Below, piece by piece: positions 4,860-48,529 of a stretch of 64,000 bases of DNA (the stretch's first letter is position 1; every line of letters begins with the position of its first letter). The stretch is taken from NCBI GenBank assembly GCA_902800585.1, contig CADCEW010000001.1:1994-65993 (forward strand), in the 5' to 3' direction. The notes under the pieces are model-generated. The model searched no databases and was not told the DNA's origin. It saw only the letters and a program-made list of their open reading frames with translations. The stretch is from an uncultured Prevotellaceae bacterium. GTDB lineage: Bacteria; Bacteroidota; Bacteroidia; Bacteroidales; Bacteroidaceae. The translations under genes and the position numbers were made by a program.

Positions 4860-7800
4860 TTACTGATCTATTCCCAGTTTTCCACCACGGTCTTGGAAGG
4901 CATGCATGACGTTACTCAATACGGCTTCATGTTTCTGTCCCCACTGCTCGTCGACAGTTTCACCCAACTGCAGGAGTTGGCTGAGGATGTAGATGTGCAT
5001 ATAGCAACTGTCTTCCGACAGGTCGAACTGCTGGTTGTCGAGGTTCAGATACCATGAGACATACTGGAGAGAGTTCTTCCAGAGTTGGTTGACCAACTGC
5101 ATGGCGTTCTTTTCGTTACCCATGGCAGCCCATGCACGTGCCATATCCAGTGAACCAGAGGTATAGTTGTGTGGGATATTATAGGAAGGAAGCATCTTCT
5201 CGCAGTATTCGAGAACCTCTGCAGCCTGCTTGTCGTTGCCTTCGCTGACCAGATGTACAGCCAGTTTTGCCATGATGCGGCGATGGGTATAGCACATACG
5301 CATCACAGTCTCGTCGAGATAGACGCCCTTTGTGTTAGCACCACCGAACTTGAAGCGGTGCATCACATTATCATAGGTACGCTTCGTATCAAAGTTCTTG
5401 GCACCTTCCGCATTGGTGGTGAAAGGTGTGATACGATAGGTGAGACCTTCCGTAATGGTGTTGTCTCCCAAATTGATGTAGTTCTCATCACCTACGGACA
5501 CAGCGACATAGATAGGACGCTTCCAGTTACACTCGGCAAGCATCTCCAGAATCATCAGGTCGCCTTTGTAGAGGGCTGATTTACCCTTGAGGGAGATCAC
5601 CATCTTATCAGGGATAGAGTCAGTTGCCATCATCATACCGCTCTGACGAACAGCCTCCTTGTCAATAGTCATATAGAGCGTATCGGTAGGAATGACATGG
5701 AACTCAGCGGTCTTTGAGCGTACCCAGTATTTCAGGACGTTCTTCAGTTCAAACGGTTCTTCGCCAAACTGTGCCTTTGCCTGTTCAGGTTCCTGCTTGT
5801 AGAATTCGAGCACAGCCTGTTTCATGTCAGGCTCGATGGCTACATACTCATTCGTACCAGCACAGTATTCAATACGTTCCCATGTGATGGGTACGGAAGG
5901 CGAGTCATAGGCAGGACGACGCATCTGGTCGATATACCAGTCAGTCTGCAGATAAGAGAGGTTGCAGACACGAGCATCCGTGCGTACGCCTTCCACATCC
6001 TGATTATACCACAGGGGGAAGGTGTCGTTATCGCCATTGGTGAAGATAATTGGATTGCCTTCATCCTGCAGGGACATCAGATAGTTCTGTCCGAAGTCAC
6101 GACAGGTATAGCGTCCGCTACGATCGTGGTCGTCCCATGTCTGGGATGCCATCTGGATGGGGACTAGTATGGCTGCTATAGATACTAAAGCGGCTATCAC
6201 CACCTGTCCGTTCTTCATCTTACGATTGATGAGGTCGATGAGGGCTGCGACACCCATACCACACCAGATAGCGAAGGCATAGAAGGAGCCTGCATAGGCA
6301 TAGTCACGCTCACGTGGCTGCATCGGCGTCTGGTTCAGATAGATGACGATAGCAAGACCTGTCATGAAGAACAGGAAGAATACCACCCAGAACTGACGGA
6401 TGCCAACAGGTTCTATCTCTGTCTGTTCCTTACCATCAACAGTAACACGACTCTTGCGAGTGTACCATGACTGCCAGAAGAGTCCGATAAGTCCAAGTAG
6501 CAACGGCAGACAATAGAACACGTTATGTCCCTTGTTCTCTTTCAGTTCGTCAGGCAAGGTGTTCTGGTCGCCTAAGCGCCAAGAGTCAAACCAGTCGAAA
6601 CCAGTGAGCCAGTTGCCGTGCTCCAGTTCGCCATTACCCTGCAGGTCATTCTGTCGTCCAGCAAAGTTCCACATGAAATAACGCCAGTACATGAAGTTAC
6701 ACTGGTAGGAGAGGAAGAAACGTATGTTCTCCAACTGACTGGGAACCTTTACGCTGATCATCTCACCACAACGGTCATACATCTCCTCATGGCCATCAAC
6801 ACTGCCGCCTAACCAACTCTCGTAGGCAGCACGATGAGACGAGCTGTACATACGAGGGAAGAACATGTTCTGCGCATACTCGTATTCATCCTTGGTGCGT
6901 AAGATGAAATATTCGTCTTTCTCATCGGGAGAAGCCTTTTCCTTACGCTGCCACACAGGGGCACCCTTCTTCATGACAGGCTTACAATACTCGCCGTCTT
7001 TCTCCAAGGCAACCTGTGAGGTATATGCCTGTCCGTAGAACAACGGACGCTGTCCGTACTGTTCACGTCCGAGATACTCGCCCAAGGTGAAGATATCCTC
7101 TGGGGAGTTCTGGTCCATAGGCGGGTTGGCCGATGAACGGATAACGATAAGTGCATAGGAAGAGTATCCAATCATGATCATCAGCATGCAGAGCAGTGAG
7201 GTGTTCTTGATACGTGCAGTGACAAGCAGTTTGTTTTTCTGCTTGTATTGCAATATAAACCACAGGACCACCAATACCACGATACCGATGATAACTGCCG
7301 ACCAGCCGTGTCCGTAGAAAGGAATACCCAGCATGGCGACAGACAACAGGAAGGCGATGTTCTGTTTCTTCTCACTGACATCACGATGTGTCTCGTAGAT
7401 AGCCCAGATAGTGATGGCTATCAACAGGAAGATATAGATAATCTCACCTGTGTTGAAAGGACAACCGAGGACGTTGACAAACAATAACTCAAACCATCCA
7501 CCGACCTGTACGATGCCTGGTACGACACCATAGAGTACAGCGGCAAGGATGACAATAGAGATGCCTAAGGCTATCAAAGAGCCATAGAGGTCTTTCTTAG
7601 GCAGGCTCTGCGGGAACTTACGATAGTAATAAACCAGTACGATGGCTGGCAGACACAGCAGGTTCAGCAGATGGACACCAATGCTCAAGCCCGTCATATA
7701 CATAATCAATATCAGCCAACGATCGCTATGAGGTTCATCGGCATGGTCTTCCCATTTCAATATCAGCCAGAATACTATAGCGGTGAAGGCTGAAGAATAG

Positions 7801-8798: not shown

Positions 8799-9712
8799 AG
8801 GTTATAACCTGTGAGTAATAAGGTAGTGATGCAGATAAGACAGAATGCGATATTGGTTATCTTGGTGTGGGTCAGCGCCATGAAATGCCCAATTAGCGGT
8901 GCTGTGTTGATAATCAGGATTCTGATTAACGGATCGTAGTATTGTGGTTGCAGACAAATGAAAGCAACTGTCAGGAAATCTATCCAGATAAAGAAAATTA
9001 AGAGTTGGCGGGTACGAATCTTGTCTAAGTAATAGGTGCGCCAATAATGAATGGCACCGATAAGGGCCAAAAGGATGACGAAGGCGAAGGTTATCGTCTG
9101 ACTGTTGTTTAAGATGTTAAAGTCAAAAGGTGTCTGAAATTCCACCAAAGGTGTGAGATGGTCGACAAACAGGGAGAAGTTGTCTTGATAGACCAACCAA
9201 CAGATTCCTAACCAATAGGGGGTGATGATACCCATCAGGGAGGCGAAGAAGGTGCGTAGTGAGAACGATTGCAGACAGGTGAGCATCAGTATCCACAGGA
9301 AGGGTACAAAATAGAGAATATGTACAAAGGTGAGACTTGCCAGTCCGATGCACAGGAATCCGTAATAGGTCAGTCCTGCACCACTCTTGTCATGATAGGA
9401 TTGAAACAGAATGAGATAAGAGGCGACGATACATAACTGGGTGAAATTCCCAGAAAGTGAAGGGAACAGAAAGCATGCCATACACGAGAGTAACAGAAAG
9501 GATACTGATACCATTCGGGAGTAGATGCGGATGAGGGCGTTGGTGTTGTTCAGTTGCACCATCAGATAGGCCGTCAACATAAAACAACCGAACTGAATCC
9601 ACCATTGTTCTTGAATCAGTCCTCCCAACAGCCATATTCCTATCGCATAGCATAAGGTGACAGGCAGTGTCAGTCTGCTTCCCGTTATCTTATTCTGTAG
9701 TAGCTTCTTCAT
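8789..9712 (-). CDS. Polytopic membrane protein of unknown function (DUF6427-like, usually next to purD in Bacteroidales)
   Basis: 307 aa, about 9 hydrophobic segments; start overlaps the purD stop. Confidence 0.6.
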   Translation of the reverse strand: MKKLLQNKITGSRLTLPVTLCYAIGIWLLGGLIQEQWWIQFGCFMLTAYLMVQLNNTNALIRIYSRMVSVSFLLLSCMACFLFPSLSGNFTQLCIVASYLILFQSYHDKSGAGLTYYGFLCIGLASLTFVHILYFVPFLWILMLTCLQSFSLRTFFASLMGIITPYWLGICWLVYQDNFSLFVDHLTPLVEFQTPFDFNILNNSQTITFAFVILLALIGAIHYWRTYYLDKIRTRQLLIFFIWIDFLTVAFICLQPQYYDPLIRILIINTAPLIGHFMALTHTKITNIAFCLICITTLLLTGYNLWM

Positions 9713-10989
9713 TACAAGTCAGCACCGATGTCCCGACGGAAATATTTATCCGTGAACTGTATCTTCTGAGCCTCCTCGAAAGACTTCTGTAAGGCTTCTG
9801 CCTTATCCTTGCCATAAGAAGAAACTGCAATGACACGACCACCATTTGTGACCACCTGTCCGTCCTTCAGTGCTGTTCCACTATGGAAGACGATAGAGCC
9901 TTCTATTTGATCAATGCCACTGATAGGATAGCCTTTCTTGTATTCCTGCGGATAACCGCCACTGACTAACATGACACAGACTGCGGCACGTTCGTCGAAC
10001 TCAATAGCACGCTGGTCAAGGTTACCTTCAGCAACACCTTCGAAGAGGTCTACGATATCGCTCTTCAGACGAAGCATGACACTCTCTGTCTCAGGGTCTC
10101 CCATACGGCAGTTGTATTCAATAACCATCGGGTCACCTTTCACGTTGATAAGTCCGAAGAAGATAAAGCCTTTATAGTCGATATCCTCGGCTTTCAGTCC
10201 CTCAACAGTTGGACGGATGATGCGGTCTTCTACCTTCTGCATCCATTCTTTGGTAGCAAAAGGAACGGGGGTTACACTTCCCATACCACCAGTGTTCAGA
10301 CCAGTGTCGTGTTCACCGATGCGTTTATAGTCTTTTGCCTCAGGAAGAATCTTATAATGGTTGCCATCAGTCAATACGAAGACGCTGCACTCGATACCAC
10401 TCAGAAATTCCTCAATGACCACTTGTGAAGAGGCATTGCCGAACATACCGCCCAGCATCTCCTTCAATTCTTTCTTTGCCTCATCGAGGGTAGGGAGAAT
10501 CAGCACACCTTTGCCAGCGCAGAGTCCATCAGCCTTGAGAACGTAGGGCGGTTCCAGTGTTTCCAGGAAAGCCAGTCCCTCTTGAACGTGTTCTCCGTCA
10601 AATGTTTGATAGCGTGCTGTGGGGATATGGTGACGTGCCATGAATGCCTTGGCGAAATCTTTAGAGCCTTCCAGGACAGCACCTTGTTTGGACGGACCAA
10701 TCACAGGAATATTATTTGTGAGCTCGTCGTTTTTCAAGTTGTCGTAGATACCTTTTACCAACGGGTCTTCGGGCCCTACTACTACCATGTCAATCTGTTT
10801 GTCTATACAGAATGCCTTGATGGCGTCGAAGTCATCCGCCTTCATTGCGACATTCTCTCCGCAGTTGGAGGTACCTGCATTACCTGGTGCGATGTATAAT
10901 TTCTCACATTTCTCACTCTGAGCAATTTTCCAGGCGAGTGCATGCTCACGACCGCCACTGCCTAACAATAATATCTTCATTTTCGTCAT
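9712..10989 (-). CDS. purD: Phosphoribosylamine-glycine ligase
   Basis: [43 protein letters not shown] and [10 protein letters not shown] motifs; start could be 10980. Confidence 0.98.
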
Positions 10990-13222: not shown

Positions 13223-14606
13223 GGTCACGGAAACGTCGGTTGTTCTTTTTAAAAGGTTTCTTATAGTCTTTAGATTCTCTGTCCCTTGCTTTCTTCGGTT
13301 CCTTCTTCTCTAATGAACGGAATTTAAAGGTTCGGATATCTGCCTCTTCGTTCTCTTCCTGTTCCTCCAGTCGTTTCTTGAACTCACGGTTCTGTCTGAA
13401 ACGACGTTTCTCTGCCATTTGGCGTTTCTCCTCTTCTGTCTTAACGACACCACCTTCGGCACGGAACTCTCTCATCTTTCCAGTAAAGATCTGGTATTTG
13501 CGGAACTCACATTCCAGACTGCCATTATAGACAGGAATCTTGATGGAAGGTTTTAGTCCGATTTGGTCGAAACACTCCTCCCGATAACTGAGAATCCAAG
13601 CATCATTGTTCATAAACTGGTGTTTCAGTCGTTCTCCAATCATTTTATAGGTGCCTAATAAGTCGGGAGTGGAGATACGCTCACCATAAGGTGGGTTCAT
13701 GATGATGATGCTTTTCTCCTTTGGCTGTGTGAAGTCCTTGAAATCTGCTTCCGCTACTGTGATATCGTTCGTCAGACCCGCTGCACGTACATTCATACGT
13801 GCCGTATTAACAGCCTTGATATCGATATCATATCCATAGATATGATGCTTGAATTCCCGCTCTTTAGAGTCGTCATTATAGATTTCATCAAAAAGGTCAC
13901 GATCAAAATCCTTCCATTTCTCAAAGGCGAATTCTTTGCGGAAAAGTCCGGGTGCCATGTTGCGAGCAATCAATGCCGCTTCTATGAGTAATGTGCCACT
14001 GCCACACATTGGATCAATAAAGTCAGTCTCCCCATGCCATCCTGTCATGAGTATCATACCTGCTGCAAGAACCTCATTCAGAGGAGCCTCAACAGATTCC
14101 TGACGATAACCACGACGATGCAAGGATTCGCCACTGGAATCCAAAGAAAGGGTACATTTATCTTCTGCAACATGGATATTCAGGCGGATGTCCGGATTTG
14201 TCACGGATATATTCGGTCGGTTGCCTGTTTTCTCACGGAATTGGTCAACAATGGCATCTTTCACCTTATATGCCACAAATTTAGAGTGTCGGAACTCCTC
14301 AGAGAAAACGACGGAGTCTACTGCAAACGTTGTGTCATTGTCTAAGAATTCCGTCCAGTCAATAGTCTTGACTCCTTCATAGACGTCATCAGCAGACAAA
14401 GCCCTGAAATGCTTGATAGGTTTTAGAATACGAATAGCTGTATGCAACTGGAAATTGGCACGATACATTATATCCTTGTTACCCGTAAAGGAAACCATAC
14501 GGCGTCCTATCTGTACATTCTCTGCGCCCAGTTGCGTCAATTCTTTCGCCAAAACAGGTTCAAGTCCCATAAAGGTCTTGGCGATGAGTTCAAAATCTTG
14601 TGTCAT
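13203..14606 (-). CDS. rlmL: THUMP-domain 23S rRNA m2G methyltransferase (RlmL-like) with a charged C-terminal tail
   Basis: SLHRRGYR, APLNEVLAAG, DPMCGSGT and NPPYGER motifs. Confidence 0.88.
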   Translation of the reverse strand: MTQDFELIAKTFMGLEPVLAKELTQLGAENVQIGRRMVSFTGNKDIMYRANFQLHTAIRILKPIKHFRALSADDVYEGVKTIDWTEFLDNDTTFAVDSVVFSEEFRHSKFVAYKVKDAIVDQFREKTGNRPNISVTNPDIRLNIHVAEDKCTLSLDSSGESLHRRGYRQESVEAPLNEVLAAGMILMTGWHGETDFIDPMCGSGTLLIEAALIARNMAPGLFRKEFAFEKWKDFDRDLFDEIYNDDSKEREFKHHIYGYDIDIKAVNTARMNVRAAGLTNDITVAEADFKDFTQPKEKSIIIMNPPYGERISTPDLLGTYKMIGERLKHQFMNNDAWILSYREECFDQIGLKPSIKIPVYNGSLECEFRKYQIFTGKMREFRAEGGVVKTEEEKRQMAEKRRFRQNREFKKRLEEQEENEEADIRTFKFRSLEKKEPKKARDRESKDYKKPFKKNNRRFRDHDENED

Positions 14607-14625
14607 AATGTTATATAAATATGGT

Positions 14626-14657
14626 GCAAAGATAGTGCAAATCGAATAAAATACAAA
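14626..14657 (-). repeat. Promoter-bearing repeat unit related to the lysS-upstream element
   Basis: GCAAAGATAGTGCAAATCGAAT matches 63246-63267 at 19/22 positions; contains minus-strand TTTG (14654-14657), 19 nt, TATCTTTG (14627-14634). Confidence 0.7.
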
Positions 14658-14718
14658 GAAAAAGGAAACTTTTCTTTAATATTCTGAATATTTTGTGTAA
14701 TTTTGTACGCCTTAAGTA

Positions 14719-17301
14719 ATGAAGCCGATGAGGAGATTGATGAGGACATATTCCGTATTAATGTTACTGTTTTTGTGTTTACCGTCGCAAGCACAGGGAC
14801 TCATTTCTGGATATATCACTGATGTAGAGACCAAGGATGCCATCCCATCAGTGACAGTCTCATATAAGGGACATAAAGTTGCGGTAGTCTCAGGGCTGGA
14901 TGGTCGTTATGTCATCCAGAAGAGAGTGGGATGGAACCTGACTTTCAGTGCTGTCGGTTATGTGTCGCAGACGATAACGATAGAAGACAGGACTCCAGTC
15001 AAGATAGATATTAAGTTAGAACCTGACGTTAAATCACTTCAGAATGTTGTGGTGAAGTCGAAACGCAAACGATATAGCCGTAAGAACAACCCTGCTGTAG
15101 AGTTGATGCGTAAGGTGATAGAACACAAGAAACTGACAGACTTGTCGAATAAGGACTACTATCAGTATAATAAATATCAGAAACTAACGCTGGCAGGTAA
15201 TGATATTACCCCTGAGAAATTGCAGCATTCCATTTTCCGCAAAAAGAAATGGATACTAGACCAGATTGAGATATGCCCGTATAACAACAAATTGGTTCTC
15301 CCTATTTCCATTGATGAGACGGTAACCAAGAAACTTTATCGTCGTCATCCGCATGATGAGAAGAATATCATATTGGGACAGAATTCCTCAGGAGTGGGTG
15401 ACTTGTTTCAGACGGGTGACATTATGAACACGATGATGAAGGACATCTTTACTGATGTGAATATCTATGACGACCAGGTTAGATTGTTGCAGCGCCCGTT
15501 TACTTCGCCTATAGGAAAAGGTGCCATTGGCTTCTATCGTTTTTATATTGAAGACACATTACAGGTCGACCGCGATAGTTGCATCCATTTGCATTTCGTT
15601 CCCAATAATATGCAAGATTTTGGCTTTCGTGGAGATATTTATATATTAAAAGATTCCAGTTATCAGGTAAAACGCTGTGATTTGACGATACCTCGACAGA
15701 GTGATGTCAACTTTGTAGAGAGTATGCGTATCAACCAGGAGTTTACCCGACTTCCAAGTGGTGAATGGGTATTGACGGTTGATGATATGATCGTAGAGAT
15801 AGAAGTCCTTAGTTTCATTCAGCAAGCCGTTGTTGTCAGGAATACCCGATTGACTGATTATGCCTTTGATGAGTTGCCTGACCACTTATTCAAGGGGAAA
15901 AGAGATGTCAGGGAAGCGGATGCGATGAATCATGGCGACCTATTCTGGGCTCAGTATCGTCAAGTGGATCTGACTAAGGGTGAGAGTGGCATGAAGGACT
16001 TCGTTGAGGGCTTCAAGACGATGAAAGGCTTTAAGATTGTGATGTTCGGTTTGAAGGCGTTGATAGAGAATTACGTGGAGACAGGTAATCCCTCCAAGGT
16101 AGACATCGGGCCGATTAACACGATGATATCCACGAACTTCATTGATGGACTCCGTACACGTTTCAGTGCACAGACGACAGCAAACCTGAACAGACACTGG
16201 TTCTTCCTAGGTTATGTGGCTCGTGGCTGGAAATCGAAAAAGAACTATTATAAGGGTGAGGTAACCTATTCATTTAATGCGAAGGAATATACTCCCCGTG
16301 AGTTCCCTAAACGTACAATTACTTTTTCTTCCACGTATGATGTGATGTCTCCTTCGGACAAGTTCTTGCAGACTGATAAAGATAATGTATTCACTGCATT
16401 TAAGTGGAGTAAGGTGAAGGCGATGATGTTCTATAATCGCCAGATGTTGTCTTTTGAACGTGAAGAGAATTTCGGACTCAAGACTGCTGTCGGTTTGAAA
16501 ATAGAAGAAAATGAGGCCTGCGGTGATTTGTATTTTACTCCGATGAACATGTATTCCAAGTGGAGGGAAGCGACGGATATCCCACGTCCTTCAGTTAAAC
16601 TTCGTACTACAGAACTTCGTGCAGAGTTTGAATATAGCCCTGGCACGACCTTTATTAATACAAAACAGCGTAGAAAGAAAGTCAATCGCGATGCTCCCAT
16701 CTTTAATCTGAGTCATACTCTCGGTATTAAGGGATTCTTGGGAGGTGATTACAACTATAATTATACTGAGTTGAGTATCACTCAACGGATATGGTTGAAC
16801 AGTTGGGGTAAGGTAGATATGTATGTGAAGGGTGGCATACAATGGAATAAGGTACCGTTTCCTTTGCTTTGTATGCCAGAGGCTAATTTGTCGTATATCC
16901 TCCAGAAGAATACCTTCAGTCTGATTAATAATATGGAGTTTCTCAACGACCGATTCGTCACTGCCATCTTTGCATGGGATTTGAATGGAAAGTTGTTCAA
17001 CCGTATACCATTGCTCAAGAAACTGAAATGGCGTGAGTATATAGGTGTCAAGATGCTATGGGGAGGCTTGTCAGACAAAAATAATCCTTTCTTGCCGCAG
17101 AATGCAGACAGTCCGTTATTGATGGCGTTTCCTGAAGGATCACATGTGATGGATCCCAAGCGTCCTTACTGGGAAGTATCCGTAGGTATTCATAATATCC
17201 TCAAGTTTATCCATGTGGAGTATGTACGACGCCTAAACTATAATGACTATTCCACCGCTCATAAACGAGGTATTCGAATGACGTTACATTTTACATTCTA
17301 A
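14719..17301 (+). CDS. Carboxypeptidase-regulatory-like domain plus DUF5686 outer-membrane protein
   Basis: Signal peptide, ISGYITD...FSAVGY N-domain, YSRKNNPAVELMRKVI motif, C-terminal Phe. Confidence 0.85.
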   Translation: MKPMRRLMRTYSVLMLLFLCLPSQAQGLISGYITDVETKDAIPSVTVSYKGHKVAVVSGLDGRYVIQKRVGWNLTFSAVGYVSQTITIEDRTPVKIDIKLEPDVKSLQNVVVKSKRKRYSRKNNPAVELMRKVIEHKKLTDLSNKDYYQYNKYQKLTLAGNDITPEKLQHSIFRKKKWILDQIEICPYNNKLVLPISIDETVTKKLYRRHPHDEKNIILGQNSSGVGDLFQTGDIMNTMMKDIFTDVNIYDDQVRLLQRPFTSPIGKGAIGFYRFYIEDTLQVDRDSCIHLHFVPNNMQDFGFRGDIYILKDSSYQVKRCDLTIPRQSDVNFVESMRINQEFTRLPSGEWVLTVDDMIVEIEVLSFIQQAVVVRNTRLTDYAFDELPDHLFKGKRDVREADAMNHGDLFWAQYRQVDLTKGESGMKDFVEGFKTMKGFKIVMFGLKALIENYVETGNPSKVDIGPINTMISTNFIDGLRTRFSAQTTANLNRHWFFLGYVARGWKSKKNYYKGEVTYSFNAKEYTPREFPKRTITFSSTYDVMSPSDKFLQTDKDNVFTAFKWSKVKAMMFYNRQMLSFEREENFGLKTAVGLKIEENEACGDLYFTPMNMYSKWREATDIPRPSVKLRTTELRAEFEYSPGTTFINTKQRRKKVNRDAPIFNLSHTLGIKGFLGGDYNYNYTELSITQRIWLNSWGKVDMYVKGGIQWNKVPFPLLCMPEANLSYILQKNTFSLINNMEFLNDRFVTAIFAWDLNGKLFNRIPLLKKLKWREYIGVKMLWGGLSDKNNPFLPQNADSPLLMAFPEGSHVMDPKRPYWEVSVGIHNILKFIHVEYVRRLNYNDYSTAHKRGIRMTLHFTF

Positions 17302-40422: not shown

Positions 40423-41154
40423 TTACTGGTATTTCCTGATTCTAACGTCAATGCCGCTGCCGCCTAAGAGCATACTGACCTTACGGATGGGCGTGTCGCT
40501 ATAGTGATAGGGGAACAATACCTTCGGGCGGATAGTCTTTGCTGCCTTCACCAATTGCTCAACAGTCATGGTGTAGGGTTGGTTACAAGGCAGGAAGGCG
40601 ATGTCGATATCCTTGATGTTTTCCATCTCAGGAATGTCCTCTGTATCACCAGCCACATAGATACGCAGGTTCTCGATGGTGAGAATATAACCATTGTCAC
40701 GTCCCTTCGGATGGAACTTCATATGGGCGGGTGTGGTATTATAGGCAGGAACAGCCTCTACAGTGATATTATCGTCCACTTGTGCCTTGTCGCCATTCTT
40801 CATCACATAACCGCTACCCCAGTTCTCATATACATTATGATTAACATAGATGGTTGTGTACTTCCTCTTCAATTCTGTCAGTGCCATCGAATCAAAATGA
40901 TCCTGATGCTCGTGGGTTACAAAGATAAAGTTTGCTTTGGGGAAAGCGGTGAAATCGGTATACGGCTTCACGTTGATGACGGGATCGAAATAGATGACCT
41001 TTCCGTCGTATTCCATCATAATAGTAGCGTGTTTGATACAGGTAATCTTCAGCGTTTTACCTGATTCCGTCTTAAACTCATCCTTCTCAAAGGGTTGTGC
41101 CATACAACCAAGTGCAAGGCAACACATCATGATTATAAAACAAGTTTTTTTCAT
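40423..41154 (-). CDS. Exported MBL-fold metallo-hydrolase
   Basis: Signal peptide; HAT, THEHQDHFD, AYN, GDT and PYHY motifs; -7 box TATCTTTG at 41187-41194 (minus). Confidence 0.9.
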   Translation of the reverse strand: MKKTCFIIMMCCLALGCMAQPFEKDEFKTESGKTLKITCIKHATIMMEYDGKVIYFDPVINVKPYTDFTAFPKANFIFVTHEHQDHFDSMALTELKRKYTTIYVNHNVYENWGSGYVMKNGDKAQVDDNITVEAVPAYNTTPAHMKFHPKGRDNGYILTIENLRIYVAGDTEDIPEMENIKDIDIAFLPCNQPYTMTVEQLVKAAKTIRPKVLFPYHYSDTPIRKVSMLLGGSGIDVRIRKYQ

Positions 41155-41356
41155 ATTTATTGGTCTGTTTATGATATAAATTGGTGCAAAGATAGTATAA
41201 AAATTCGATTTGGCGAAGAAAATTACATATTTATTTATGTTTTGGGGTTATTCTTTCCGCTTGAATCGCTTGATGGCGCTTTGTTAATAAATGCAAACCA
41301 ATGTTATAAAATAATGTAAAATGGAAAAGTTCAAGTGAGATTGAGCAAATAATTAC

Positions 41357-41364
41357 TATCTTTG
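41357..41364 (+). promoter_or_regulatory. -7 box (TATCTTTG) for the FHA/kinase operon
   Basis: Matches TANNTTTG, 42 nt upstream of ATG 41407. Confidence 0.55.
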
Positions 41365-41406
41365 TGATTACAATATAGATTAAAGTATAACTTAAAACGG
41401 ATAAAT

Positions 41407-42108
41407 ATGAAAAAAGATGAAACATTTGTAAAAGGAGGTAACAATCCTTATGCACGTTCAAACGGAGGTCAACGTTCAGGTAATGAGACTTATATCCCTG
41501 GTATGAATGACTATACACCAGGCAGTGCTCCTGCTCCTGCAGCAGCAAATCCAAAGGCAAAGCCCAATACTCCTGTCGTAGGCTTCTTGTATTCCATCTC
41601 CCGTAAGGGCATTGGCGAGTATTGGCCTCTTCATTTGGGAACTAACACGATTGGTAGGTCAGAAGACAATGATATCTGTCTGAAGGAGATGTCTGTGTCA
41701 AGCAAGCATGCTACCTTGAGCATCAAGCAGATGAAGAGTACTCACAAACTGATTGCCAGTATCCGTGATACAGGTTCAAAGACTGGTATGTATCTGAATG
41801 ATGAAGAGTTGGACTATGAGAATCATACTTGTAAGGCCAACGACATCATCACTGTGGGTGCCAATTATAAATTACTGCTTATCTTGATTGATGCAGAAGA
41901 ATATGGACTCTCTGTATCTGAAGAATTCGTAGAGGATAAGGATGCCGCTGAGGCTCCTGCTCCTTATCAGGCACGTGGCGGTTTCGGAGACGACGCGACA
42001 CAGAATAATTTCCGTCCATATAGCTCTGATCACCGTAATGTAGATACTGGTACGGTAGATTTGAGCGGTGCAGGCTTTGATGAGCCAGGTGGAACAGAGA
42101 TGATGTAA
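41407..42108 (+). CDS. Soluble FHA-domain protein with disordered N- and C-terminal tails
   Basis: NTIGRS, SVSSKH, RDTGSKTG and DIITVG FHA motifs; no TM. Confidence 0.9.
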   Translation: MKKDETFVKGGNNPYARSNGGQRSGNETYIPGMNDYTPGSAPAPAAANPKAKPNTPVVGFLYSISRKGIGEYWPLHLGTNTIGRSEDNDICLKEMSVSSKHATLSIKQMKSTHKLIASIRDTGSKTGMYLNDEELDYENHTCKANDIITVGANYKLLLILIDAEEYGLSVSEEFVEDKDAAEAPAPYQARGGFGDDATQNNFRPYSSDHRNVDTGTVDLSGAGFDEPGGTEMM

Positions 42109-42135: not shown

Positions 42136-43764
42136 ATGTCTTTAATATATATACAAGGAGAAGAGGAGAAACAGAGACACATACACTATGAGGTGGACCC
42201 GGAATTGCCTTCATTGGGTGAGGGCGGTATGGGACAGGTTCTGAAAGGTGTACAGGTGAATGAAGTTAATGGCGTCCGGAAGGATGTCGCTATCAAGTTC
42301 CTGTTCGAGGATTTACCTGCCCATGCCATTGAACGAGCCCGGAGAGAGGCTTCTATTCAGATACATAATGAGAATCTGGTAGAGATGTTCGGCTTTATAG
42401 AGGTCGTAGAGAATCCTCAAAGTGCACATCCTGTCAAACGCTACCATGTGGTTAGTGAATTGTTACAGGGTGTGATGCTCTTTGACTTGTTGAATGGCAA
42501 GACGACGGACAAGAATGGTAACGAGGTACCTTTCGCTCAAGAATTGTATTCCAAATACCAGAATGACCGCTTCGGCTTTGCTGTCTTCATCGTGAAGAAC
42601 ATCCTGTCGGGACTGATGGCTCTGCATGACAAGGGCTATATTCATCGTGACTTGGATCCGAGCAACATCATGATTACTCCTGACCGAAAAGTTAAAATCA
42701 TCGATTTCGGTATTGCAAAGCAGATGGAGAATCTGAATACACAAGATCAACAACTGACCAGTACGGGACAGTTTGTGGGAAAGGCAGCCTATGCTGCTCC
42801 TGAGCTTGTGTTAGGTGATGTACATAGTCAGGACAAAACCACGGATATCTATGCTGTTGGTATCATGCTCTTCCAGCTCATCACGGGAAGCATGCCCTTC
42901 GAGGGAACGATGGCAGAACTGATTAAGAAACAGTTGAATGAGAAGATTCCTCTGAAACTGATTCCTTATAAGGCTGTGCGGAATATCGTTGCCAAGGCTA
43001 CTGCTAAGAAGCAGAGTGACCGCTATCAGTCTGCAGCGGAGATGCGTGTGGATCTGGAGCATTTGTCGAAGAAAGATGCTGTCCCGTCTGCTACCAGTGC
43101 AGGACAAATAGTAGCAAGCGTGGCTGATGTGAAGAGCAGTAAAGGTAAACTCATCGGTATCTTTGCTGCTGCGGTAGTGGTATTGGCAATTATTCTTGTC
43201 GTCTTACTGAGTGGTGGTTCTGATTCTCCGAAAGATGCTCCGGAAAGTACTCAAAACGTTGAGGCAACTTCTGAGGATTTTGACGTGGCGACCAGTTTCA
43301 CCAAGGCAGAGGATGCCTTGTCGAATGCAGCCACTATCCAAGAAGGAGTCAACTTATTGACAGAGATAGCCACCAAGCACGGAGATGAGAAAGATGCCGC
43401 TGACGCTATTGCCTTACTGTCTGCACTGACACAACCGGAAGATGCGGAAATCAGTGCCAATGAGGTGAAAGAGTTCAGGTCACTGACAGTGAATGCCATT
43501 AAGCGCGATGCCAAGAAGGCTCATCAGTTGGCAGAACAAGCTTATAAGGCTAATCCTGAGAGTTATAAGGCAATATTTGAACTTGCGACTGATTATGTGG
43601 CAGGAGAGAGACGGACGGGTGATGCAAAGGTACAGGATATCCAGAAGTCACTTAAACTGTTTGAGGATGGAATCAATTACGCTCGTCTAAAAGGTGATGC
43701 CGAATATGTGCAACTCTATACTACCCGTATCGAACAGGTACGTAGCCTTGTGCAGGGTGAGTAG
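42136..43764 (+). CDS. Membrane-anchored Hanks-type Ser/Thr kinase with a helical extracytoplasmic domain
   Basis: GEGGMG, VAIK, HRDLDPSN, DFG, APE, DIYAVG; TM LIGIFAAAVVVLAIILVVLL; helical TPR/Sel1-like C-terminus. Confidence 0.9.
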   Translation: MSLIYIQGEEEKQRHIHYEVDPELPSLGEGGMGQVLKGVQVNEVNGVRKDVAIKFLFEDLPAHAIERARREASIQIHNENLVEMFGFIEVVENPQSAHPVKRYHVVSELLQGVMLFDLLNGKTTDKNGNEVPFAQELYSKYQNDRFGFAVFIVKNILSGLMALHDKGYIHRDLDPSNIMITPDRKVKIIDFGIAKQMENLNTQDQQLTSTGQFVGKAAYAAPELVLGDVHSQDKTTDIYAVGIMLFQLITGSMPFEGTMAELIKKQLNEKIPLKLIPYKAVRNIVAKATAKKQSDRYQSAAEMRVDLEHLSKKDAVPSATSAGQIVASVADVKSSKGKLIGIFAAAVVVLAIILVVLLSGGSDSPKDAPESTQNVEATSEDFDVATSFTKAEDALSNAATIQEGVNLLTEIATKHGDEKDAADAIALLSALTQPEDAEISANEVKEFRSLTVNAIKRDAKKAHQLAEQAYKANPESYKAIFELATDYVAGERRTGDAKVQDIQKSLKLFEDGINYARLKGDAEYVQLYTTRIEQVRSLVQGE

Positions 43765-43779
43765 AGAAATTGATTAAAG

Positions 43780-44718
43780 ATGCCGGGGAAAGTAAAGAAG
43801 CAAGGAAACATCATCTATCTGAATGCCTACGGTCGTTGGTATCAGTATGATGAAACGCAACCACCGCTTGGCGCTGGTGCCATGGGAGTCGTGTACGTCG
43901 GAGAGGAATGCCAGACGCACGAACCAGTAGCAGTGAAACGGGTGGTTGACCACTATGCCAATAACCCGGAGATTCGCAGACGTGCCCATCAGGAGGCCGA
44001 TTTAATGTTCAGTCATCCCAATCTGGTAGAGATGCTCGGATGCTGCGAGGTACGTCCTGATACGGGTCCTATCTTTATCATCAGCCGTTTTGTCAAAGGC
44101 GAGAATATTGATAAGTTCATCAATGCTTATGTACGTGCTCTTCCCAATGCAGAGCATCGTATCTGTGAACTGTTTCTGCCAGTGTTAGACGCACTTGCGT
44201 ATATTCATACGAAAGGAATCATCCACATGGATATCAAACCGTCGAACATCATGATGGAACAGGGACGTAATGTACGACTGATGGATTTGGGTATCGCTGA
44301 TGTCACGGACACTATCAACAGTTCTACATCGGGTATGATGGGAACTCCCAAGTATGCAGCACCAGAACAGTTCTCTGATGTGGCAACCAAGCCGCAATTA
44401 ACCTCAGCGACAGATATCTATGAGGCAGGCATCACTTTGTATGAGTTGATTACCAAACAGAATCCCTTCTCGGCAACGACTGTGGCAGAGGCGAAGGAAC
44501 TGCATCACGGTATGATACTGCCAAAAGTGCCGGGAATCTCCGACTCAGTCTATGAGGTAGTACGTAAAGCAACGGCTATCAAGCCTCAGGATCGTTTCCA
44601 GACTGCATCAGCCATGAAACTCGCTTTGAAGGAGGCTCTTCCTCCGCGCAATTATACGAAATTTGACAGAATTCTAAAAGATAAATTATCGATGTTTTCG
44701 GGCATCTTTAAGAAATAA
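43780..44718 (+). CDS. Soluble Hanks-type Ser/Thr kinase (non-RD)
   Basis: GAGAMG, VAVK, HMDIKPSN, DLG, GTPKYAAPE, DIYEAG; no TM. Confidence 0.92.
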   Translation: MPGKVKKQGNIIYLNAYGRWYQYDETQPPLGAGAMGVVYVGEECQTHEPVAVKRVVDHYANNPEIRRRAHQEADLMFSHPNLVEMLGCCEVRPDTGPIFIISRFVKGENIDKFINAYVRALPNAEHRICELFLPVLDALAYIHTKGIIHMDIKPSNIMMEQGRNVRLMDLGIADVTDTINSSTSGMMGTPKYAAPEQFSDVATKPQLTSATDIYEAGITLYELITKQNPFSATTVAEAKELHHGMILPKVPGISDSVYEVVRKATAIKPQDRFQTASAMKLALKEALPPRNYTKFDRILKDKLSMFSGIFKK

Positions 44719-44724
44719 AATAGT

Positions 44725-46125
44725 ATGAATACAATCAAGACAGCAACACCTATAGCAGGCTATTGGGATACCCGGCAAGGAGGACGGGTGGAAAATCAGG
44801 ACTCTTGCGGTTTCTTGGATACGGAGAAAGGACTGATAGCCGTAGTCTGTGACGGTATGGGCGGTGGTCCCAGCGGACAACTCGCTTCTACGATAGCCGT
44901 TCAGAAAATCGTAGAGTATGTAGTTAACGCCCCTATGGATATGCCACGTACAGAGATGGTAGCCCAGGCTATAGAGTATGCGCATCAGTCTATTCTTGCC
45001 AAGACAGCAGAGAATCCTGCCTTGAGGGGTATGGGTTCGACGGCAACAGTGGTGTTGATTAGTGGACAATCTGCAATATTAGGTCATGTCGGTGATAGTC
45101 GTATCTATCAATTCCGTCGTGGCAAGAAGATCTTCCGTACTGCCGACCATTCAATGGTAGGTGAGTTGGTACGTAATGGTACATTGACGGAAGAGCAGGC
45201 TAGACTGTCATCACAGTCAAATATTATCACGAAAGCGTTAGGCAGTAAACTGACAAACCTTGCAGAGGTGACGGAACGTCCCTATGAGAAAGGCGACCGC
45301 TTTATGCTTTGTACGGATGGTATTTGGGGCGCTATGCCAGAAAGCGACTTGATTAAACGAGTGGCTAAAACTCAATCATTGTCGGGAGCTGTTGACTCTA
45401 CTGTAATAAAAGTGGACGAGATAGGGCGTGCCAATGGTAATAAGCATGACAACCTGACGATTGCATTATTAGAAACCAAACAAGATTCTATACTGAAAGA
45501 AAAAATGAGTAAGAAAACATTACGAATTTTGATAGCACTGGCAGCTGTCTGCCTGTTGAGTGTGATCCTCAACATCGTGTTGTTAACCCGGAATACCGTT
45601 AAGTCGCATGACAGTGAGAAAGAAGCGCTGATCACCCAGAATGAGGAACGGGGACAGCGTATCAGGGCATTGGAAGATAGTATCCAGTCCTTATGGGGAA
45701 CTGTTCATGACTCGAAGAACGAGGCTGCTGATGCTAATTTGAAGGCTGCCAAGGAGAAGGAGAATGCCGCGGAGAAGGCAAGGGATGATGCTGAGCAGAA
45801 GGCGAAAGAAGCGAAGGAAGCTGCCGACAAAGCCAAGGATGCTGCCGACCAGGCTAAGGCTGCTGCGGATGCCATCCAGAAGTCGCGTGGTGATGTTATT
45901 GCCCAACTCACGAAGATTAAGGATATGAAGGAGGGTGACCAACGCAAACAGATGCGTACCTCTGTTTCCAATCTGTTGAAGACGCTCTCTGCCCAAGATG
46001 CTACCCACAAGGCCATTTATGATGAGGTGCGTGAGAAACTGGGAAATAAGGTGGCCACCGAGAATTCCGACAAGGCCATTGGCCATTATAAGTTCTTGAT
46101 AGGGAAAATTCAAAACATCAAATAA
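44725..46125 (+). CDS. PP2C/PPM phosphatase with TM helix and C-terminal Ala/Lys/Glu coiled coil
   Basis: GRVENQD, VCDGMGG, HVGDSR, LCTDG and DNLT motifs; TM ILIALAAVCLLSVILNIVLL. Confidence 0.93.
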   Translation: MNTIKTATPIAGYWDTRQGGRVENQDSCGFLDTEKGLIAVVCDGMGGGPSGQLASTIAVQKIVEYVVNAPMDMPRTEMVAQAIEYAHQSILAKTAENPALRGMGSTATVVLISGQSAILGHVGDSRIYQFRRGKKIFRTADHSMVGELVRNGTLTEEQARLSSQSNIITKALGSKLTNLAEVTERPYEKGDRFMLCTDGIWGAMPESDLIKRVAKTQSLSGAVDSTVIKVDEIGRANGNKHDNLTIALLETKQDSILKEKMSKKTLRILIALAAVCLLSVILNIVLLTRNTVKSHDSEKEALITQNEERGQRIRALEDSIQSLWGTVHDSKNEAADANLKAAKEKENAAEKARDDAEQKAKEAKEAADKAKDAADQAKAAADAIQKSRGDVIAQLTKIKDMKEGDQRKQMRTSVSNLLKTLSAQDATHKAIYDEVREKLGNKVATENSDKAIGHYKFLIGKIQNIK

Positions 46126-46127
46126 TA

Positions 46128-46838
46128 TTGCCTATGAAGACCGTATCAATAGGAAGAGGAGAGGGCTGTAATATCATCGTGGATGACGAGATGATGAGTC
46201 GCAGTCATGCGATTATCAGGATTCCTACTTTCGGTAAGATGGAGGTGGTTGATATGAGTAAAAACGGAACCTATGTCAATGGAGTCCGTGTGCGTCCTAA
46301 TGTACCAGTTCCTGTAACCCGTAAGGATGTTGTCAATTTTGCGGAAGTATATCAATTAGACTGGTCGACAATACCAGACCCTCTGAAATATTATAAGATA
46401 GGTGCAATTATCGTGGGTGGACTTATCGTCCTTCTGTTGGTCATCTTACTTTTCAAGAGTTTGTCCAGCGGCACCGATACTTCTCCAGAGCAGCCTGCTG
46501 TAGAACAAGTCCAGAAACCTATACAGACAGACTACGAGCAACCGTCTCAGACCAAACAGGAAGAGGAAACTCAGCCTGAGACACCTATCGAGAGTGATGA
46601 AACTGCCACTCCTTCTAATACTCCAGAGGCTACGTCGGGTACTAGTAATGAAGTAATTGATGTCTATGGGGCTGCCCGTGCCAGTAAGAAGAAACGTGAG
46701 GCAGAGGAACGTGCTCGTCAGCAAAAGGCTAAAGCACAACAAAAAGCGAAGGAACAACAGCAATCCAAGCCTCAGGATAGTCAGCCTTCTAAAGATAAAT
46801 CATCTGATGGTAATAAGAATAAAACAGTCGTAATATAA
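46128..46838 (+). CDS. FHA domain plus TM plus low-complexity tail
   Basis: SIGRG, MSRSH and SKNGTYVNG motifs; TM IGAIIVGGLIVLLLVILLF. Confidence 0.9.
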   Translation: MPMKTVSIGRGEGCNIIVDDEMMSRSHAIIRIPTFGKMEVVDMSKNGTYVNGVRVRPNVPVPVTRKDVVNFAEVYQLDWSTIPDPLKYYKIGAIIVGGLIVLLLVILLFKSLSSGTDTSPEQPAVEQVQKPIQTDYEQPSQTKQEEETQPETPIESDETATPSNTPEATSGTSNEVIDVYGAARASKKKREAEERARQQKAKAQQKAKEQQQSKPQDSQPSKDKSSDGNKNKTVVI

Positions 46839-46855: not shown

Positions 46856-48529
46856 ATGAAGATTATTAAAATTGGTAGTTCGCAATCTTGCGACATCGTA
46901 TTAGACAGTAACTTTGTCAGCAGCCTGCATGCTGAAATGACCATTCTTGACGACGGACAGATAATCCTGGAAGACAAGAACAGTAAGAACGGAACACAAG
47001 TCGGTAATAAGAGAATAGAGCCGGGTAAGGAGGTTTCAATACAACGTGGTGACCGTATTACCTTTGCTGATACTCCTCTGGTATGGGCGAAAGTTCCTGC
47101 TCCAGAGAAATTGGCAGCCTATAAGTCTGTGTATAATATCGGTTCTAATTTCCGTAATGATATTATTTTGAACAGTCAGACAGTTAGCCGTTATCATGCT
47201 TCCCTCAGAGTCGGTAAGGATGGTAAGATGTATATCCATGACAACGGCAGTCGTAATGGCACGATGGTGAATGGTGTAAAGATTGCTGCCAACAAGGATG
47301 TCCGTATCAAGAAGGGTGATAATATTGTCTGTGGTACAGAGGATGTAACGGATCAGGTGACTGCTTTGTTACCCAAGAGCAATACAGGCATGATTGCTGC
47401 TATTGTCGGTGGTGTAGTAGGTCTTCTCGTATTAGCTGGTATCATTTTCGCTCTTTGGCCGAAGTCAGAACCAGAGCCTGTGATTGCTTCTACAAATGAC
47501 TCAACCTATGTAGCTCCATCTACTCCAACAAATGTTTCTCCTGAGAAGTACCGCAACACGGTAGTATATGTGGATGCAATGTATCATTATATTGCTGAGT
47601 TTGAGGATAACCCCATGCCGGATACATGGAACGGAAAGATTGAGGATATCGGTAGAATAGAGGGTGATAATGCAATTAGACCTTATAGTGCAACAGCCTT
47701 CTTCCTCGATAAGAACGGTTATATGGGTACTAACCGTCATGTGGCAGTACCATGGGATTACAGAACTAAGGATGAAGACAACAGAATCCGTGAGTTAATA
47801 GAATATCGCATAGAGTTGATGCGTCGTACCTGTAGGTTTATGAAGACTGGTGATGAGCGCTGGACAGTGAGCGAAAAGAATAGGGATTTCTCTCAACTTA
47901 CTATGCAGAAATTTGCTGAGACAGATTTCTTTAAGGCAATATACAACCACATCCGTAAATCTGCTAATTGGCAGGGTGAGCTGGATAAGATTGTTGATCG
48001 TCTAAATCGTTCCCGTTACACCATCACAGGTGCTATCGATTATATTACGGTAGGTTATGCCGGCAGGAACTATACCCATCGTGATGAGTTCCAGCGTTGC
48101 GATGTTGTAGCAGATTCTAAGGATAAGGAGATTGATGTAGCTTTGTTACAATTGAACGACAAGAAGACTCCCGCAGATGTGGAACTTCTCTTCAGCCCCA
48201 GCAACTTCTATACAGAAAAGTTGGTTCCTTTGAAGGACAAATTGTTTACTATTGGCTATCCAGCAGGTTTGACATGGGGACTTGATACGAAAATCAAGTC
48301 TTTGGAACCCAATATCAAGGAGACCAAGTGTAGTAAGGAGCCAAGCAAGTATGTCTTTGAGTTCCAGGATCAGTCAATAGGCGGTAGCAGTGGCTCGCCA
48401 GTCTTTAACGAGGCAGGTCAGTTGGTTGGTATCCTCAGTTCCGGTACCTCTAATGTGGCAGGTGGCTTCACGATGGCTGTACAGTCTAAGTATCTGAAGA
48501 AAATCTATGATGAAGAAGCAGGACAGTAA
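46856..48529 (+). CDS. Tandem FHA domains, TM, then trypsin-like (S1) serine protease
   Basis: Two FHA repeats (VSSLH/SKNGT; VSRYH/SRNGT); TM; triad TNRH (H295), IDVALL (D427), GSSGSP (S512). Confidence 0.88.
   Translation: MKIIKIGSSQSCDIVLDSNFVSSLHAEMTILDDGQIILEDKNSKNGTQVGNKRIEPGKEVSIQRGDRITFADTPLVWAKVPAPEKLAAYKSVYNIGSNFRNDIILNSQTVSRYHASLRVGKDGKMYIHDNGSRNGTMVNGVKIAANKDVRIKKGDNIVCGTEDVTDQVTALLPKSNTGMIAAIVGGVVGLLVLAGIIFALWPKSEPEPVIASTNDSTYVAPSTPTNVSPEKYRNTVVYVDAMYHYIAEFEDNPMPDTWNGKIEDIGRIEGDNAIRPYSATAFFLDKNGYMGTNRHVAVPWDYRTKDEDNRIRELIEYRIELMRRTCRFMKTGDERWTVSEKNRDFSQLTMQKFAETDFFKAIYNHIRKSANWQGELDKIVDRLNRSRYTITGAIDYITVGYAGRNYTHRDEFQRCDVVADSKDKEIDVALLQLNDKKTPADVELLFSPSNFYTEKLVPLKDKLFTIGYPAGLTWGLDTKIKSLEPNIKETKCSKEPSKYVFEFQDQSIGGSSGSPVFNEAGQLVGILSSGTSNVAGGFTMAVQSKYLKKIYDEEAGQ

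Follow-up and report, generated by a model that had tools for sequence, protein, structure and literature searches.

The closest described relatives of the kinase studied here are the receptor kinases of the PknB/Stk1/PrkC type (M. tuberculosis PknB; PDB 1mru, 1o6y, 5u94). This kinase, referred to as K1, is encoded on a 64,000-nucleotide stretch of DNA from an uncultured Prevotellaceae bacterium (assembly GCA_902800585.1, contig CADCEW010000001.1, positions 1,994 to 65,993 of the forward strand), which is called the window. PknB-type kinases were the best match to K1 in both sequence and fold. K1 has in common with them a kinase domain of the RD type, Thr residues at the positions of PknB T171 and T173, a single transmembrane (TM) helix, a presumed sensor domain outside the cytoplasm and linkage to FHA and PP2C proteins. 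PknB reads HRDVKPAN in the catalytic loop and GTAQY in the P+1 loop, whereas K1 has Asp in place of the Lys of the former and Lys in place of the Thr of the latter. Unlike PknB, K1 also lacks PASTA domains, has an all-helical sensor domain and carries an extra helix of about 20 residues before helix E.

A Lys in the catalytic loop and a Thr in the P+1 loop are regarded as marks of almost every Ser/Thr kinase. The catalytic-loop Lys touches the gamma-phosphate, and the canonical P+1 Ser/Thr hydrogen-bonds to this Lys and to the catalytic Asp. In the WNK kinases it is the beta3 (VAIK) Lys that is missing from its canonical position, being supplied from the glycine loop in a kinase that is intact and active. 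In Tyr kinases (HRDLAARN/HRDLRAAN) the catalytic-loop Lys site is altered, the charge comes from a replacement Arg within the catalytic loop, and the P+1 Thr is changed to Pro. WNK kinases offer a mechanistic precedent for K1 in their relocated active-site Lys, but the two are unrelated, as K1 keeps the VAIK Lys (K54), its glycine loop (GEGGMGQV) has no Lys, and the Lys that would have moved in K1 is that of the catalytic loop, to the P+1 loop. Membership of the WNK type was ruled out by the retained beta3 K54 and the Lys-free glycine loop. Tyr kinases resemble K1 in that the catalytic-loop Lys site and the P+1 loop are both changed and the charge would come from elsewhere; they differ in that K1 has no replacement Arg and has Lys at the P+1 site. 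Contact of the P+1 Ser/Thr with the catalytic loop in canonical Ser/Thr kinases has been described (PMC6213207). The features of the window on which the comparison rests are as follows.

42136-43764, plus strand: kinase 1 (K1), an open reading frame (ORF) for a receptor-type Hanks kinase of 542 residues (Pfam Pkinase, 126.5 bits)
42643-42666, plus strand: K1 catalytic loop HRDLDPSN, residues 170-177, with the codon of D174 (42655-42657) in place of the catalytic-loop Lys
42757-42765, plus strand: K1 activation-loop residues T208-S209-T210, the first and last of which align with the PknB phospho-sites T171 and T173, respectively
42778-42804, plus strand: K1 P+1 loop GKAAYAAPE, residues 215-223, with the codon of K216 (42781-42783) in place of the P+1 Thr
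43780-44718, plus strand: kinase 2 (K2), an ORF with a Pfam match, for a soluble Hanks kinase of 312 residues with the canonical Lys and Thr

An original prediction, made from the sequence of the window, had pointed out HRDLDPSN with Asp174 and GKAAYAAPE with Lys216 in K1, and all of these were correct when the ORF residues were read and aligned with PknB. When K1 was aligned with M. tuberculosis PknB by phmmer, HRDLDPSNIMI fell on HRDVKPANIMI and GKAAYAAPE on GTAQYLSPE, so that D174 corresponds to PknB K140 (PKA K168) and K216 to PknB T179 (PKA T201); the DFG motif of K1 occupies residues 190-192. Two Hanks hallmarks are absent from K1, namely the catalytic-loop Lys of HRDxKxxN and the P+1 Ser/Thr. 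K1 is a variant Hanks-type kinase and not a textbook member.

Both substitutions proved to be family-conserved and not private to this sequence. Among homologue clusters sharing 61-100% identity, 120 of 120 kept HRDLDPSN and GKAAYAAPE. When 1.84 billion cluster representatives (50%-identity clusters) were searched, 1159 matches fell below 1e-30, and the best 150 of them were inspected. About 135 of these 150 representatives were K1 family members, and they carried HRDxDP[ST]N with GK, save one with Asp and Arg, one with Ser and Lys, one with Ala and Thr, and one AK. D174 was conserved at 90% or more in the family alignments. The Asp and Lys pair was present in 31 of 31 distinct K1-type genes from the fetched loci, which span Prevotellaceae, Muribaculaceae, Tannerellaceae, Odoribacteraceae, Spirosomataceae and Chitinophagaceae, while the 61 canonical kinases in the fetched loci all had Lys plus Thr or Ser at the two sites. 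In the 31 distinct DNA sequences the Asp codon was GAC (17) or GAT (14) and the Lys codon AAG (18) or AAA (13); both codons turn over synonymously, and Asp and Lys are therefore held by selection. Drift or sequencing error as the cause of the swap was ruled out by the 120 clusters, the approximately 135 representatives and this synonymous variation.

The distribution of the K1 family was patchy. Of the genomes sampled, 7 of 150 from the same family and 0 of 6 from the same genus carried K1-type genes, and no further ones were found in the order-wide (0/400) or phylum-wide (0/400) genome samples; the family members came mostly from contigs of metagenome-assembled genomes (MAGs). One Prevotellaceae MAG (L037) carried two K1-type genes in one operon (9001-10500 and 13998-15503). 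The first copy, which reads GEGSTG and GNASY, has lost the P+1 Lys and retained the Asp, and it may be decaying or have become specialised; in the second the usual Asp/Lys pair is intact.

K1 and K2 formed a clade (Shimodaira-Hasegawa-like approximate likelihood ratio test, SH-aLRT, 99) nested among canonical Bacteroidota kinases, and these sister paralogues have opposite states at both sites. When K1 and K2 were aligned, only the columns of these two sites were fixed at 100% for one residue in K1 and at 100% for a different one in K2, which there agrees with the canonical kinases. Kinases of Acidobacteriota, Myxococcota and Bdellovibrionota that read HRDx[S/A/G/N/T]PxN and GKxxYxxPE were recovered by the pattern scan as well. 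In this second class, as in K1, loss of the catalytic-loop Lys is coupled to gain of a Lys at the P+1 site. The class differs from K1 in having a neutral small residue and not Asp, in its phyla and domain architectures, and in forming a separate clade (with weak deep support). A DNA-pattern census of the second class was performed over five genomes, with zero matches for the reversed-pattern controls. In the 59 census kinases with a P+1 Lys, the catalytic-loop site was occupied by Ser (51), Thr (5) or Asn (3), and by Lys in none; among kinases with a P+1 Thr (n=179), Lys was present at that site in about 147 of the 150 listed. The co-variation of the two sites, which the original prediction had raised, was thus borne out both by the opposite states of K1 and K2 and by the absence of Lys at both sites (0/59) in the second class. 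Taken together, the sequence comparisons support the view that the Lys-to-Asp and Thr-to-Lys changes are conserved family-wide and coupled.

On the tree the Ser/Lys-type class lay apart from K1 and K2, although the deep nodes were weakly supported. Forcing all kinases without the catalytic-loop Lys into one clade cost 61 log-likelihood units (approximately unbiased (AU) test, p 0.0498). Three phylogenetically independent contrasts were available, all in the same direction. Several acidobacterial kinases of the Ser/Lys class (L056, L086, L109) have a GEGGMGxV glycine loop and DLG, as do the Bacteroidota K1/K2 kinases, which hints at a deeper shared origin than the tree resolves. A multiple origin of the swap is therefore treated as favoured only, and convergence is not claimed as established.

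The interpretation towards which we lean, at slightly better than even confidence, is that K1, a receptor Ser/Thr kinase from a family specific to Bacteroidota, is competent in catalysis, is controlled by way of its activation loop and has a rewired phosphate/acceptor pocket, in which the P+1 Lys would replace the catalytic-loop Lys. The positive charge of the HRDxK Lys would be supplied instead by K216 of the P+1 loop. Given a small residue in the catalytic loop, a Lys rooted at the P+1 position could place its amine where that of the missing Lys would lie, and this requirement matches exactly the residues observed at the catalytic-loop site (S, T, N, A, G and D). D174 would probably pair with K216, perhaps through a salt bridge, and so link the two loops after the activation loop has become ordered. 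The analysis establishes the two residues, how they are conserved and coupled, the intactness of the catalytic core and the make-up of the operon; we infer the geometry of K216 and D174, the kinase activity of K1 and who would phosphorylate whom. The broader proposition, on which we are evenly divided, is that Hanks kinases have a second pocket layout, in which the catalytic-loop Lys is replaced in space by a P+1 Lys, and that this layout would define large active families, probably with more than one origin. These would comprise an Asp type with at least 135 clusters at 50% identity (the Bacteroidota K1 family) and a Ser/Thr/Asn type with tens of genes per myxobacterial genome.

Several observations weigh against this interpretation. 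Exceptions to the Asp/Lys pair exist, with Asp and Asn (L037), Asp and Arg (P0201), Ser and Lys (L048/P0229) or Ala and Thr (P0259), and 3 of the 150 listed kinases with a P+1 Thr had no catalytic-loop Lys. An Asp beside the gamma-phosphate might push ATP away or call for an additional metal, and the neutral small residues of the other class suggest that the Asp may have a role beyond making room. Other kinases are encoded elsewhere in the genomes whose FHA/PP2C operons have K1 as their only kinase. The independent origins are few, three contrasts being too few for significance (sign test p 0.25), and the AU test against a single clade was borderline.

The original prediction had suggested that K1 might be a weak or pseudo-kinase receptor that activates K2. 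Stated in full, K1 would be a pseudokinase or very weak kinase that binds ATP and serves as a membrane sensor and scaffold, activating K2 allosterically, an explanation that we consider unlikely. The catalytic-loop Lys is generally important for phosphoryl transfer, pseudokinase-kinase pairs are known parallels, and K1 and K2 are sister paralogues whose genes are adjacent, 15 nt apart, in most operons. Two mutually dependent bacterial kinases, PfkA and PfkB, have also been documented (PMC11341870). In the atlas of bacterial Ser/Thr kinases (bSTKs), pseudokinases are defined by loss of the VAIK Lys, the HRD Asp or the DFG Asp (10.1101/2025.01.12.632604). All three (K54, D172 and D190) are present in K1 and invariant in its family, so that K1 counts as canonical by this definition. 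Equally invariant in 100 family representatives are G28 and G30 of the Gly-rich loop, E71 of helix C, H170 and R171, the catalytic-loop N177, E223 of APE, D237 of helix F and R296 of helices H-I. K1 also has the features of an RD kinase, a type that depends on phosphorylation of the activation loop, namely the invariant R171 and a conserved activation-loop Thr, T208, which was invariant among close homologues and conserved at 90% or more across genera; from its alignment with a PknB phospho-site, T208 is predicted to be phosphorylated. The P+1 Lys is itself under purifying selection, unlike a decaying site. Moreover, a K1-type gene was the sole kinase gene in four FHA/PP2C operons that look complete, L044 (FHA-K1-PP2C-FHA(TM)-WG), L048, L049 (FHA-PP2C-FHA(TM)-protease-exported-K1) and L078 (K1-PP2C-protease-FHA), which argues for activity of K1 without proving it. 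A pseudokinase is unlikely because the swap is conserved through synonymous codon change, the rest of the catalytic residues are kept along with the RD Arg and an activation-loop Thr, and operons with K1 alone occur. K1 is probably active, and its active site looks rewired rather than dead.

A somewhat less probable explanation is that the swap alters the acceptor residue or sequence context that K1 recognises, since both residues flank the acceptor hydroxyl, or that D174 binds a further metal ion. The P+1 loop is a main determinant of Ser/Thr versus Tyr specificity (PMC6213207). Asp is found in Bacteroidota where the other class has Ser, Thr or Asn, which suggests more than making room, and the residue after APE is Leu in K1 and Gln in K2 and the canonical kinases. 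The operon, however, is built on FHA domains that read phospho-threonine and on a PP2C Ser/Thr phosphatase, the K1 activation loop retains Thr at the PknB phospho-sites, and K1 has no feature of a Tyr kinase, including an Arg of the HRDLAARN/RAAN type. It is very improbable that the Asp/Lys pair merely marks the lineage, having become fixed by chance in the ancestor of the family with neutral effect and no functional coupling. The tree has only about three independent transitions, for which the sign test gives p 0.25, but the two sites directly touch each other in canonical kinases, Lys never occupied both sites in the 59 census kinases, the pair was conserved over at least six bacterial families with synonymous codon turnover, and the same logic recurs in the separate Acidobacteriota/Myxococcota class.

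The overall architecture of K1 is a kinase domain followed by a TM helix and an extracytoplasmic all-helical domain. Both kinases exceeded the Pfam PF00069 gathering threshold over the whole domain (126.5 bits for K1 and 139.3 bits for K2, with a cut-off of 31.7). The AlphaFold2 (AF2) model of the K1 kinase domain had a bilobal kinase fold with a predicted local distance difference test (pLDDT) score of 89.2, falling below 50 in the activation loop only, and its top PDB match was PknB. The remaining parts of K1 are located as follows.

43144-43209, plus strand: K1 transmembrane helix, residues 337-358 approximately, with the hydrophobic stretch LIGIFAAAVVVLAIILVVLLSG (helix 343-357 in the full-length AF2 model)
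43285-43758, plus strand: K1 extracytoplasmic all-alpha domain, residues 384-541, with eight helices (AF2 pLDDT about 85-97)

The extracytoplasmic domain is presumed to be the sensor; it had no family match in Pfam or NCBIfam. NCBIfam gave only generic kinase matches below threshold and no specific family model. The K1-type kinases of Bacteroidales have an insertion of about 20 residues, with an extra helix (residues 132-143), before helix E (42493-42576, K1 residues 120-147). This insertion was shorter or absent in the K1 members from Tannerellaceae, Spirosomataceae and Chitinophagaceae.

For K2, the motifs given by the original prediction, HMDIKPSN with H149-M150-D151, DLG, and the retained Lys and Thr, were correct residue for residue. 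HMDIKPSN occupies residues 149-156, DLG residues 169-171 and GTPKYAAPE residues 188-196, and the core residues are GAGAMG, K53, D151, K153, N156, D169 (of DLG), T189 and APE.

44224-44247, plus strand: K2 catalytic loop HMDIKPSN, non-RD by sequence
44284-44292, plus strand: K2 DLG in place of DFG, by sequence

Every K2 orthologue from the fetched loci had DLG, and of the 120 closest clusters nearly all had DLG or DMG. HMD or HLD was present in 119 of these 120 clusters, and the 120th had HMD with Asp for the catalytic-loop Asn. The representative of the window's own K2 cluster (P0271, 97% identical) reads HMDIKPSD, with Asp for the metal-binding Asn (N156, 44245-44247 in the window). K2 orthologues at 43-51% identity had HRD. 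HMD/HLD is confined to the close Prevotella clade, whose K2 lacks the Arg of RD kinases, and DLG is K2-family-wide; the three unusual features are therefore of different ages and are no matched set. The original prediction of a complementary K1/K2 pair stood as far as the opposite Lys/Thr states are concerned, but the non-RD K2 is found only in the close Prevotella clade, so that the pairing is not general. The activation loop (44293-44340 in the window) reads ADVTDTxNxxTSGMM in non-RD K2 and ARMNGGNKFSxxGFI in RD-type K2. The former is acidic and rich in Thr and Ser (IADVTDTINSSTSGMM), while the latter is basic and conserved (IARMNGGNKFSSFGFI). Judged from these sequences, the K2 activation loop is remodelled together with the loss of the RD Arg. 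K2 is the canonical sister paralogue of K1, which would have arisen by duplication; in the Prevotella sub-clade it has become non-RD, with an acidic, Thr-rich loop.

K1 and K2 belong to a tightly packed plus-strand operon with intergenic spacers of 27, 15, 6, 2 and 17 nt. In addition to the two kinase genes, it includes the following genes.

41407-42108, plus strand: FHA protein 1 (Pfam FHA), the first gene of the operon, 27 nt 5' of K1, its position being kept in relatives
44725-46125, plus strand: membrane PP2C phosphatase (Pfam PP2C_2/PP2C), 6 nt 3' of K2 and present in all related operons
46128-46838, plus strand: FHA-TM protein (Pfam), gene order conserved in relatives
46856-48529, plus strand: FHA-FHA-TM-trypsin-like protease (Pfam), gene order conserved in relatives

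Two genes for exported proteins lie downstream of the protease gene. The nearest relatives were rumen Prevotella MAGs, and the usual order in relatives was FHA-K1-K2-PP2C-FHA(TM)-protease-WG/exported, K1 and K2 being adjacent with the tight 15-nt spacing in most operons. The FHA-TM protein and the FHA-FHA-TM-trypsin-like protease are likely the phospho-threonine readers and the output. In the proposed scheme, K1 and K2 would write phospho-threonine marks, the membrane PP2C would erase them, and three FHA proteins, one of them fused to a periplasmic protease, would read them.

Some genomes had duplicated K1-type genes (L032, 6905-10599; L024 (G072:C6), 5602-6960 and 14830-16284), either in tandem or within a second module that starts with a second PP2C gene. 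In L033, L034 and L038, K1 was located at the far end of the operon, behind a second PP2C gene and not beside K2. In the window, nested perfect inverted repeats (41146-41415) were observed around the 240-nt spacer that separates operon gene 1 from a divergent MBL-hydrolase gene. The outer pair is of 15 nt (41146-41160 and 41401-41415) and spans both start codons, and the inner pair is of 11 nt (41187-41197 and 41354-41364). This spacer could be an inverton.

Two described multi-gene systems resemble this operon. The kinase-kinase-phosphatase (KKP) module of Pf prophages (PfkA, PfkB and PfpC) is a toxin-antitoxin/defence module in which two kinases act only together; its defining features are two fusions, of a cold-shock domain (CSD) to PfkA and of an FHA domain to PfkB (PMC11341870). 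Two adjacent Hanks kinases followed by a PP2C phosphatase are found in both, but in the window the FHA domains are encoded by genes other than those of the kinases, K1 is a receptor in the membrane, and further genes of the operon encode the periplasmic protease and the exported proteins. KKP membership was rejected, as Pfam detected no CSD and no FHA domain in either kinase. The actinobacterial fhaA-fhaB-pstP-rodA-pbpA-pknA-pknB cluster likewise combines FHA, PP2C and two Hanks kinases in one conserved operon. The likeness is in logic only, as the gene order differs, RodA and PbpA are absent here, both actinobacterial kinases are canonical, and the partners here are a protease and WG-repeat proteins. 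Many PD-T4-6 and mad6 models of PADLOC matched K1 and K2, over the generic kinase domain only, and the genomic context is that of an envelope-signalling operon and not of a known defence system.

Among the papers covered, full-text motif searches found none that describes the swap. The bacterial STK (Ser/Thr kinase) atlas, a bacterial pseudokinase review, a Hanks-kinase review and a microbial kinome paper made no mention of Bacteroidota kinases, of K168/T201 or of a P+1 Lys. Pseudokinase catalogues check three other residues only, and swapped families therefore pass as ordinary kinases, while casual readers call such swapped kinases dead.

The K1 family is large and unstudied, and its active site departs in a new way from that of other Hanks kinases. 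If the P+1 Lys does take over from the catalytic-loop Lys, this would be the second natural relocation of a catalytic lysine after WNK, in thousands of bacterial kinases. Swapped kinases could then be annotated as active by a simple rule, and selective inhibitors would have a distinct pocket to target. For the gut and rumen Bacteroidales, K1 is identified as the enzyme heading a conserved, unstudied FHA/PP2C/protease envelope-signalling operon.

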